Made by a program: the position numbers and the translations under genes
Virus record (IMG/VR): IMGVR_UViG_2713896896_000002
Location: 1 to 6,915 of that record
DNA length: 6,915 nt
From: a virus
Taxonomy: Duplodnaviria > Heunggongvirae > Uroviricota > Caudoviricetes
Direction: 5' to 3' (one strand)
The notes under the pieces: generated by a model
Databases searched by the model: none
What the model was told of the DNA's origin: nothing
Seen by the model: the letters and a program-made list of their open reading frames with translations, nothing else
Part shown: in pieces, positions 5,252-6,915 of the stretch
How positions within the stretch are numbered: position 1 is the stretch's first letter
How the letters are laid out: each line of letters starts with the position of its first letter

Positions 5252-5323
5252 ATGAGCTGGCCTGAGGCATTCACAACAGTAGGTATTGTACTGGCGGTGT
5301 ATTCGATTTGCCGCTGGGGGTAA
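5252..5323 (+). CDS. Small ORF, 23 aa, predicted single-pass hydrophobic peptide (MSWPEAFTTVGIVLAVYSICRWG)
   Basis: Not in the ORF track. Near-perfect SD AAGGAGGTGA (5238-5247) with 7-nt spacing to ATG 5252; stop TAA 5321-5323. It sits directly after the DUF551 gene in the same orientation. Confidence 0.5.
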   Translation: MSWPEAFTTVGIVLAVYSICRWG

Positions 5324-5484: not shown

Positions 5485-5574
5485 GTGCTGGTTCTGAAAT
5501 GTGCGCTGGCTATTGCGGCTGTAATGGCAATTTATTGTCTTGTTATTGTTCTTATGAATCACCTCTCTGATTGA
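5485..5574 (+). CDS. Small ORF, 29 aa, very hydrophobic peptide (MLVLKCALAIAAVMAIYCLVIVLMNHLSD); candidate small membrane toxin-like peptide
   Basis: Not in the ORF track. SD GGGAGG (5474-5479) is 5 nt upstream of GTG 5485; an in-frame ATG at 5470 without SD would give 34 aa. Stop TGA 5572-5574. Composition resembles type I toxin peptides (single TM helix, short polar tail). Confidence 0.45.
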   Translation: MLVLKCALAIAAVMAIYCLVIVLMNHLSD

Positions 5575-5581
5575 TTTTATA

Positions 5582-5610
5582 TTGGCGAGGTGACGTGAGT
5601 TAAGTAGAAT
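5582..5610 (+). promoter_or_regulatory. Putative hok mRNA promoter: -35 TTGGCG (5582-5587), 17-bp spacer, -10 TAGAAT (5605-5610)
   Basis: Sigma70-like elements positioned so that transcription would start near 5617, at the GGGTGCTTGAGGC element typical of hok-family mRNA 5' ends. Confidence 0.5.
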
Positions 5611-5659
5611 TGCTGCGGGTGCTTGAGGCTATCTGTCTCAGGCATGAACACCAAAAGGC

Positions 5660-5750
5660 AGATAGAGAAAAGCCCCAGTTAACATTACGCGTCTTGCAGG
5701 ACGCTTAACATTAATCTGAGGCTCAATCCATGCTGAACACATGTAGGTTA
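5660..5750 (-). ncRNA. Expected position of a Sok-like antisense RNA overlapping the hok leader / mok-like start (boundaries not resolved)
   Basis: Inferred from the hok-family architecture. Candidate minus-strand promoter: -35 TTGCCT (complement of 5768-5773), -10 TAACCT (complement of 5745-5750). I could not identify a clean terminator, so the extent is approximate. Confidence 0.3.
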
Positions 5751-5786
5751 GCCTCTTACGTGCCGAAAGGCAAGGAGAAGCAGGCT

Positions 5787-5942
5787 ATGAAGCAGCAAAA
5801 GGCGATGTTAGTCGCCCTGATCGTCATCTGTTTAACCGTCATTGTTACGGCACTGGTAACGAGGAAAGACCTCTGCGAGGTACGAATCCGAACCGGTCAG
5901 ACGGAGGTCGCTGTCTTCACAGCTTACGAACCTGAGGAGTAA
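5787..5942 (+). CDS. hokD: Hok/Gef-family type I toxin (51 aa), closest in my recollection to HokD (RelF)
   Basis: MKQQKAMLVALIVICLTVIVTALVTRKDLCEVRIRTGQTEVAVFTAYEPEE carries the Hok signature (TM helix then RKDLCEVRIRTGQTEVAVFTAYE). SD AAGGAGAAG at 5772-5780. An in-frame upstream ATG at 5730 (track ORF 5730-5942) may play a mok-like coupling role. Confidence 0.85.
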   Translation: MKQQKAMLVALIVICLTVIVTALVTRKDLCEVRIRTGQTEVAVFTAYEPEE

Positions 5943-5950
5943 GAGACCAG

Positions 5951-6005
5951 GCGAGGGAGAAATCCCTCGCCACCTCTGATGAGTCAGGCATCCTCAACGC
6001 ACCCG
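5951..6005 (+). other. hok mRNA 3' structures: hairpin GCGAGGGA-GAAA-TCCCTCGC (5951-5970) and fbi-like element CCTCAACGCACCC (5993-6005) complementary to the mRNA 5' end (5617-5628)
   Basis: The 3' element is the reverse complement of GGGTGCTTGAGG at the predicted 5' end, with one bulged base. This is the hallmark 5'-3' closure of full-length hok mRNAs. The hairpin is a perfect 8-bp stem with GAAA loop. Confidence 0.6.
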
Positions 6006-6296
6006 CACTTACAACCGATGGCGCACGATACCAAATTATACAATTCTGATGATTCTGCCGTCTTTGCCAGCAGGCGCGGACGGTGTTTTCACGCATTCAA
6101 ATCTGACTGGTACCAGCATCCCCCATGCACTGAAGAACAGGCCGAATGGATAATTCAGTGTTACCGCAGGCGCGGATGCGAGGTTAAAAAAGCCCTTAGC
6201 CTCGACTACCGTCACTGGATAATCTCCGTCAGGCTCCCTTACTCCGAACGGCCGCCGCGTCCGTCCCGCACATTCCAGCAACGGATCTGGAGGTAA
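5979..6296 (+). CDS. Hypothetical protein, possibly Rem-like (Qin-prophage position between hokD and ydfU); 105 aa, or 92 aa from ATG 6018
   Basis: ORF with plausible protein-like composition (FKSDWYQHPPCTEEQAEWIIQCYRRRGCEVKK). Gene order matches hokD-rem-ydfU as I recall for E. coli K-12 Qin. No SD for either candidate start; the 5979 start would lie inside the hok mRNA 3' end. Confidence 0.5.
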   Translation: MSQASSTHPHLQPMAHDTKLYNSDDSAVFASRRGRCFHAFKSDWYQHPPCTEEQAEWIIQCYRRRGCEVKKALSLDYRHWIISVRLPYSERPPRPSRTFQQRIWR

Positions 6297-6297
6297 C

Positions 6298-6915
6298 GTG
6301 CGGGTATTACTTCGACCTGTTCTGGTACCGGAACTCGGGCTGGTGGTCCTTAAGCCTGGTCGTGAATCCATGCAGGTATTTCATAATCCTCGAGTGCTGG
6401 TGGAGCCGGAACCGAAAAGCATGCGCAGTCTGCCGTCAGGAGCTGTTCCTGCCGTTCGCCAGCCGCTCGTGGAAGATAAATCATTACTGCCATTTTTCAG
6501 CGATGAGCGGGCGATTCGTGCTGCTGGCGGCGCTGGCGCATTGTCTGACTGGCTCCTGCGTCATGTTAAATCCTGCCAGTGGCCTCATGGTGACTATCAC
6601 CACAGCGAAACCGTCATACATCGTTACGGTACCGGCGCGATGGTGTTGTGCTGGCACTGTGACAACCAGCTGCGCGACCAGACATCAGAGTCACTCGGGC
6701 AACTTGCTCAACAAAACTTGTCAGCATGGATGATTGACGTCATCCGTCACGCAATGAATGGCACACAGGAGCGGGAATTATCGCTGGCTGAATTATCCTG
6801 GTGGGCGGTCCGCAATCAGGTGGCGGACGCGCTACCGGAAGTGGTATTACGTCGTTCGCTGGGGTTGCGTGCGGAAAAAATCCGCTCAATGTACCGTGAA
6901 AGCGACATCGTACCG
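6298..6915 (+). CDS. DUF968/YdfU-like prophage protein, 5' portion (continues beyond window end)
   Basis: Open frame from GTG 6298 to the window edge (206 codons, no stop). SD GGAGG at 6289-6293. The GTG lies 1 nt after the upstream stop TAA (6294-6296). Cys/His-rich segment CQWPHGDYHHSETVIHRYGTGAMVLCWHCDNQ. The track ORF 6362-6733 is in another frame and looks spurious. Alternative start ATG 6370. Confidence 0.65.
   Translation, partial: MRVLLRPVLVPELGLVVLKPGRESMQVFHNPRVLVEPEPKSMRSLPSGAVPAVRQPLVEDKSLLPFFSDERAIRAAGGAGALSDWLLRHVKSCQWPHGDYHHSETVIHRYGTGAMVLCWHCDNQLRDQTSESLGQLAQQNLSAWMIDVIRHAMNGTQERELSLAELSWWAVRNQVADALPEVVLRRSLGLRAEKIRSMYRESDIVP
6339..6403 (+). other. Two Chi sites (GCTGGTGG) 57 bp apart at 6339-6346 and 6396-6403
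   Basis: Exact octamers in the same orientation as the site at 1225. Confidence 0.7.

Follow-up and report, generated by a model that had tools for sequence, protein, structure and literature searches.

Hok/sok loci of plasmids, phages and the Escherichia coli chromosome

The tac/fbi, ucb/dcb and metastable-hairpin scheme of the plasmid R1 hok mRNA was reportedly established by the Gerdes laboratory. The R1 hok/sok locus (an IncFII-type locus, L007) carries a 5′ GGCGCUUGAGG which pairs with a 3′ AAGCGCC, a hairpin after the stop codon, a Sok promoter that overlaps the Shine-Dalgarno region of hok, and a protein of the Hok/Gef type. The hokW/sokW subtype received its name in phage 933W in 1999 and was tested functionally in 2021 (PMC8621323), and mokW, hokW and sokW have been annotated in 933W since the original submission. 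Takada et al. describe HokW as toxic and counteracted by sokW expressed from its own promoter, with RNase III and Hfq contributing partially (PMC8621323).

The hokB and hokC loci of E. coli K-12 are not prophage-borne, and in hokC the 3′ end has been lost to IS186; IS186 or IS150 abut hokC, hokE and hokA. According to a review of earlier work, the chromosomal hokA, hokB and hokC do not cause post-segregational killing (10.1101/2025.08.07.668861), thus an intact structure does not guarantee activity. Within prophages, hok is enriched about four-fold (10.1101/2025.08.07.668861).

The locus described here lies in the window, i.e., the whole 6,915-nt stretch of DNA that was analysed. Judged from its sequence, the region 5582-6005 is very probably a hok/mok/sok type I toxin-antitoxin module of the hokD/hokW subtype, located in a lambdoid (Rac/Qin-like) E. 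coli prophage (Table 1). Such a module is of an already known type and is not a new system, since hokD is annotated across E. coli, hokW/sokW has been tested, and the enrichment of hok in prophages has been published. The 471-nt region is found at a coverage of at least 80% in 3,925 of the 5,426 complete E. coli genomes (~72%), with a median of 2 places per genome and a maximum of 10, and its PGAP name in these genomes is hokD. It is also found in 78 phage records, 933W among them. The novelty implied by the first-pass annotation is not upheld, as the same module is widespread and already described.

Table 1. Features of the hok/mok/sok locus in window coordinates.
Feature	Position	Strand	Basis and remarks
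hok/mok promoter-like site, TTGGCG-17-TAGAAT	5582..5610	+	consensus scan; also in relative L001
tac element, GGGTGCTTGAGG / GGGUGCUUGAGG, hok mRNA 5′ end	5617..5628	+	start of Rfam RF01794 match; fold
Predicted Sok antisense RNA: 14-nt single-stranded 5′ tail, long hairpin, U-tail	5662..5738	-	annotated Soks and fold
ucb-like box, AGCCCC	5670..5676	+	pair tables of full-length and truncated folds; agrees with Rfam consensus structure
mok Shine-Dalgarno GAGG (dcb region)	5718..5721	+	masked in the full-length fold, accessible in the truncated one
mok ORF, 70 aa, in-frame N-terminal extension of hok	5730..5942	+	translation; like mokC and mokW
Predicted Sok promoter: -35 TTGCCT 5773-5768, 17-nt spacer, -10 TAACCT 5750-5745	5745..5773	-	read from sequence
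hok toxin ORF, 51 aa	5787..5942	+	full-length match to Pfam HOK_GEF (PF01848; 1-42 of 42 model positions), E = 7.2e-24
Post-stop hairpin, GGCGAGGGA-GAAA-TCCCTCGCC, 9-bp stem, GAAA loop	5950..5971	+	sequence, fold
fbi element, CCTCAACGCACCC / CCUCAACGCACCC, complementary to tac	5992..6004	+	folding, conservation
Junction of the 92-nt gap, as seen against public sequences that are otherwise identical	6011..6012	+	alignment; the missing piece begins with terminator AACCCGCTCCGGCGGGTTTTGTTTTTT

Leader and folds of the hok mRNA

The -10 of the putative hok promoter lies 6 nt before G5617, the expected transcript start, and aligns with the -10s of K-12 hokB, hokC and hokE, whose leaders begin at the same point, as does the Rfam model. 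This model, RF01794 ('sok'), represents the hok-mRNA strand, so that its match to 5617-5792 (118.9 bits against a gathering score of 59, over the full model, 1-157) identifies the leader and does not alone show the antisense RNA. The tac element occurs in 82 of the 84 loci examined: the window, L001, L002, L003, and 78 of the 80 IMG/VR loci with a 98-100% identical Hok. The remaining two IMG/VR loci have the relE-linked, leaderless form of K-12. The fbi element is located 375 nt downstream of tac, to which it is complementary save for one bulged C.

The minimum free energy (MFE) structure of 5617-6005 pairs 5617-5628 with 5992-6004 in 12 base pairs with one bulge. Its free energy is -155.5 kcal/mol, compared with -116 +/- 5.6 kcal/mol for shuffled sequences (z = -6.98), and none of 100 shuffles was as good. 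The tac-fbi pairing has a probability of ~0.99, which is unchanged when the sequence is extended at the 3′ side to 6500 or at the 5′ side to 5200. In the full-length fold, the ucb box is paired to the Shine-Dalgarno region of mok. Truncation of the 3′ end at 5980-5990 changes the predicted fold: tac re-pairs with the box at 5670-5676 and the GAGG is freed. A further alternative predicted on truncation is a local 5′ metastable hairpin, in which 5619-5629 pairs with 5635-5645. The predicted folds of the window reproduce the R1 hok mRNA scheme, which is also the structure in the Rfam consensus.

Conservation of this structure was followed by projecting the MFE structure of the window onto 69 distinct aligned sequences, of which 67 are prophage copies and the other two are hokB and an R1-type hok. 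Over the whole structure, 93.8% of the cells are paired, compared with 34-46% when the partners are slid, a contrast which is overstated because the structure derives from one of the aligned sequences. The double changes, e.g., in hokB and R1, are real: 28 pairs are changed on both sides, whereas shuffles give 5.5 +/- 1.7. For the tac-fbi helix, the paired share of the cells is 99.6%, with covariation of tac and fbi seen in hokB and R1, and for the post-stop hairpin (helix 17) it is 99.2%, with 4 pairs changed on both sides. The fbi variants within the 80 viral loci all keep the pairing, either as a change of the bulged C to T or as a C to T change giving a G-U pair. A chance complementarity of tac and fbi is rejected by the shuffle z-score, the Rfam score and the covariation.

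The first-pass annotation had proposed a hok/sok-type locus with a full regulatory leader and an mRNA closed by its own ends, and the Rfam match, the folding and the conservation bear this out; the long-range pairing within 5617-6005 in particular is recovered in the predicted fold. All of the sequence features it listed are present with only small shifts in coordinates, e.g., the 3′ element ends at 6004 and not at 6005.

Toxin, mok and the Sok antisense RNA

The Hok protein of the window differs from K-12 HokD at one residue (I9V) and its frame has no premature stop. The mok frame, with GAGG located 8 nt upstream of its start, is the one from which gene callers predict a 70-aa product in relatives, and the translation of hok is probably coupled to it. 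The mok of R1 lies in another frame, whereas the mok of the window is in frame. As a separate observation, the codon of Hok Tyr47 is TAC followed by G (5925-5928, plus strand), i.e., a UACG context. In the hokC, hokD and hokE mRNAs, TadA performs A-to-I editing in the UACG context, so that Tyr becomes Cys at the site that corresponds to Cys46 of HokB in the alignment (10.1101/2025.08.07.668861).

The position of the Sok RNA was predicted by carrying sokW of 933W and sokB, sokC and sokE of K-12 over by alignment. All of their 5′ ends fall on 5738 and their 3′ ends on 5662-5668, on the minus strand. The 5′ tail of the predicted Sok (5725-5738) is identical to that of 933W, and the whole Sok region differs from it at three bases in or next to the hairpin loop. 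Both hexamers of the putative Sok promoter are invariant or nearly so in the 69 sequences; the promoter agrees with 8 of the 12 consensus positions, which is under the threshold of the scan.

The stretch 5725-5744 (both strands) is by far the most variable of the prophage hok loci, which are otherwise ~95% identical. Its mean column entropy is 0.9, compared with 0.155 overall, and 17 variants are found in 67 sequences, all with the mok ATG kept. It consists of the Sok 5′ tail over mok codons 1-3 and the 6 nt that separate the Sok start from its -10. This variability might reflect a diversified specificity of Sok and target between co-resident copies. Sok tails of co-resident copies were compared in two genomes only: the pair was identical in one and differed in the other. 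The Sok 5′ tail together with its target is the one hypervariable spot of these loci, which may be of interest to specialists.

Comparison with the related loci

The mokW/hokW/sokW locus of 933W and Sakai Sp5 (AF125520; PMC8621323) has 94% nucleotide identity to the window over 5597-6010, the positions at which the homology begins and ends. The shared elements are tac, ucb, the mok start, the Sok 5′ tail, the predicted Sok promoter and fbi. HokW is also 51 aa long and differs mainly in its last 8 residues, and hokW, like the locus of the window, has no terminator directly after fbi. The two loci differ in their location: the 933W locus lies near attR and is followed by a YgiW-like gene, whereas the locus of the window lies in a nin-like region before DUF968-RusA-Q.

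The hokD gene (relF) of the K-12 Qin prophage has 96.7% nucleotide identity to 5773-6011, including the post-stop hairpin and fbi, and it is followed by a DUF968 gene (ydfU) and Q, as in the window. It keeps the terminator, with rem inserted before ydfU, but lacks the whole leader (promoter, tac, ucb, Sok and mok start), in place of which stands relBE. Since K-12 hokD is homologous only from 5773, 14 nt before the ATG, the K-12 copy is the derived one and the window represents the common state. The first-pass annotation was right on K-12, where hokD follows relE, and right to describe the present locus as prophage-borne and not linked to relBE, which the gene context and the profile matches support. 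The idea that a hokD without relBE is unusual is rejected: the relE-linked form accounts for only 2 of the 80 viral loci, and the form with the full leader is the norm in viral loci and in complete E. coli genomes alike (78 of 80 and ~72%, respectively).

The hokC (gef)/mokC/sokC and hokB/mokB/sokB loci of K-12 have the same 5′ leader, an in-frame mok, and Sok 5′ ends at the same position. The tac of hokC is identical to that of the window, and hokB shows compensatory changes in tac and fbi. The R1 locus shares the architecture and the order of elements, with about 44% protein identity (PMC8621323); its Sok hairpin is shorter than in the window, and a terminator hairpin stands right after its fbi. 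The comparison with R1 and the K-12 loci, proposed along with the initial description, found the regulatory elements undisrupted and hok uninterrupted.

Prophage context and neighbouring reading frames

By its gene order, the surrounding DNA is a lambdoid prophage of the Rac/Qin type. A repressor-like gene is followed by YdaS-like and YdaT-like genes, an HTH_36 replication initiator, a DnaC-like loader, DUF1627, DUF551, hok, a 92-aa ORF, DUF968, RusA, Q, holin, lysozyme and terminase, which places hok between the replication genes and DUF968-RusA-Q. The DNA on the left side of hok appears to be a site of variable cargo. In some otherwise syntenic prophages (L103 1068-3612, L094), the DUF551 gene just upstream of hok is replaced by three genes whose domains, PF20275 CTD10, PF20293 MC6 and PF10088 DUF2326, are of the conflict-system type. 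In UPEC 26-1, the same slot holds QueH.

Two short reading frames precede hok. The first is a very hydrophobic 29-aa ORF (MLVLKCALAIAAVMAIYCLVIVLMNHLSD, 5485-5574, plus strand), which starts with GTG, has GGGAGG 5 nt upstream and stops 8 nt short of the hok -35. Of the 82 related loci, 17 retain it, mostly with conservative changes, and the ratio of synonymous to nonsynonymous codon differences is 36:36. This is the small peptide ORF that had been reported upstream of hok; PGAP calls no gene at 5485-5574 and the ORF is unproven. The second is a 23-aa ORF (MSWPEAFTTVGIVLAVYSICRWG, 5252-5323, plus strand), beginning 5 nt past the DUF551 stop codon and closely preceded by AGGAGG. No fuzzy match to it was found in relatives at up to 16 mismatches; similar ATGA(G/C)CTGGCCTGA starts occur ~295 nt before hok in other viral loci.

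The missing terminator and the 92-nt gap

Over its 6,915 nt, the window has 0 mismatches (100.000% identity) to contigs from the assemblies GCA_008326605.1 and GCA_053700355.1, save for 92 nt which are absent from it at 6011|6012. The description of the locus as intact is therefore valid within 5582-6005, but the intrinsic terminator after fbi is missing. In UPEC 26-1, phage Evi and K-12 hokD, a strong intrinsic terminator, AACCCGCTTCGGCGGGTT with a T-run, is located within 7 nt of fbi. A terminator follows fbi in L001 and R1, and it is found directly 3′ of fbi in roughly 90% of the 80 viral loci (at least 69 by a strict pattern, and several more with variant hairpins). The adjacent terminator is a typical, not a strictly defining, feature of hok loci, because the working hokW is also without one.

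The missing sequence was also considered as a known RNA family, for which the only match was a sub-threshold one to isrK, an Hfq-binding sRNA of Salmonella Gifsy-1 (Rfam RF01394). Intact relatives of the locus match this model over its full length with 28.3 bits, compared with a gathering score of 50. The match (L097 7842-7923, corresponding to window 5951-6011 and the missing 92 nt) spans the post-stop hairpin, fbi and the terminator. The window itself has no isrK match because the terminator half is missing. Their settings are similar: IsrK and the intact hok relatives each lie in a lambdoid prophage, with a small ORF and a Q-type antiterminator region downstream. IsrK is transcribed from a promoter of its own, and hok is not mentioned in the IsrK paper. 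With a match below the curated threshold, the resemblance may serve as a lead only.

The 6011|6012 junction is absent from the 5,426 complete E. coli genomes searched by megablast, and from the GTDB representatives, IMG/VR and the JGI metagenomes searched by exact-pattern scans. Because none of these collections contains it, the gap is to be explained either by a deletion private to the source strain or by an artefact. The latter, arising in the assembly or in the production of the window, with the real locus intact and terminated as in GCA_008326605.1, is a serious possibility, although it falls somewhat short of an even chance. The full identity of both flanks of the gap to two public assemblies and the lack of the junction in all four collections argue for it, as does the retention of the 92 nt in all 10 contigs with an identical downstream 92-aa ORF. 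The breakpoints share no repeat beyond a microhomology of 1 nt, which points in the same direction, yet a clean internal loss of 92 nt without repeats is atypical of assembly errors. Moreover, prophages commonly carry private deletions, and the window itself has no mark of editing. As a consequence of the gap, an in-frame ATG at 5979 is joined to the downstream 92-aa ORF, giving a 105-aa ORF (5979-6296, plus strand) which overlaps fbi. No such protein was found by exact look-up in the protein collection, and no Shine-Dalgarno sequence precedes 5979.

A real deletion could also have left the copy decaying or rewired, which is unlikely. Such a copy would lack a defined 3′ end 20-40 nt past fbi, its 3′-processing timer would be altered, and read-through would bring both hok-promoter and early-operon transcription into DUF968-rusA-Q. 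The lack of any terminator-like site at 5900-6915, where relatives have a clear one, is in favor of this reading, and so are the conservation of the terminator in roughly 90% of the 80 close relatives and the decay of other chromosomal hok loci by IS insertion or truncation. However, hokW of 933W also has no adjacent terminator, the next one being located ~430 nt downstream, after L0136, and yet hokW/sokW is functional (PMC8621323). Extension at the 3′ side leaves the tac-fbi pairing unchanged, and every other element is unmutated. For the end of the hokW mRNA near fbi, the 2021 paper contains neither transcript sizes nor a mention of a terminator (PMC8621323). The functional weight of the gap is uncertain because the closure is unaffected and a working hokW/sokW does without the adjacent terminator. 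A stronger form, in which the loss is both real and meaningful, is highly improbable. It would resemble a small 'nin-type' deletion removing the only intrinsic terminator between the hok promoter and DUF968-RusA-Q, by which the constitutive promoter of the toxin-antitoxin module and un-antiterminated early transcription would be coupled to the late-gene antiterminator and the hok timer would be changed.

Proposed mechanism and biological role

The elements, the structure and the conservation described above are the observed part of the regulation of the locus; its mechanism is drawn by homology to R1 hok/sok and hokW/sokW. A weak constitutive promoter, with the -10 ending at 5610, would produce a stable hok mRNA from ~5617. 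In the full-length RNA, tac would pair with fbi and ucb would cover the mok Shine-Dalgarno sequence, so that the RNA would be neither translated nor bound by Sok. Slow trimming of the 3′ end would then remove fbi, allowing tac to re-pair with ucb, which would expose the mok ribosome site and the Sok target. As long as the short-lived Sok RNA (5738 to ~5665, minus strand) is made, it would block the translation of mok and thereby that of the coupled hok. When its synthesis stops, e.g., because the element is lost, transcription is shut off or the prophage is induced, Hok would be made and would damage the inner membrane. With the terminator missing, the transcript of the hok promoter would run into the 92-aa ORF and the DUF968 gene, and the tac-fbi closure is predicted to persist.

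By the same analogy, which would extend to the expression, RNA processing and toxicity of the window copy, its role is most likely that of a canonical Sok-controlled Hok switch. Prophage maintenance or abortive infection had been proposed as its purpose, but the one tested function of the subtype is to aid phage release after induction (PMC8621323). Assistance of lysis on induction may be at least as plausible as maintenance or abortive infection. That host lysis and phage release after induction would be the main role, as in Sp5 hokW/sokW, with rightward early transcription swamping or occluding the Sok promoter, is a tentative proposal, a little less probable than its opposite. In the study of Takada et al., mitomycin C led to a RecA-dependent loss of sokW and appearance of HokW, and phage release was halved without the locus (PMC8621323). 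The locus of the window belongs to the early-right operon and has the replication genes and Q on its own strand, and its Sok 5′ tail is the one found in sokW. However, this is a single study, of a copy located elsewhere in the phage genome (near attR in 933W), and the occlusion of the Sok promoter is itself presumed. Furthermore, R1 hok/sok lowers the plating of T4 (cited in PMC8621323), which leaves room for a role in defence.

For a Sok-controlled Hok switch, which is a textbook module, the importance of the locus lies in little beyond its right annotation. If the loss of the 92 nt is real, the copy would provide a natural test of how far the 3′-processing 'timer' of hok depends on the 3′ end of the mRNA.
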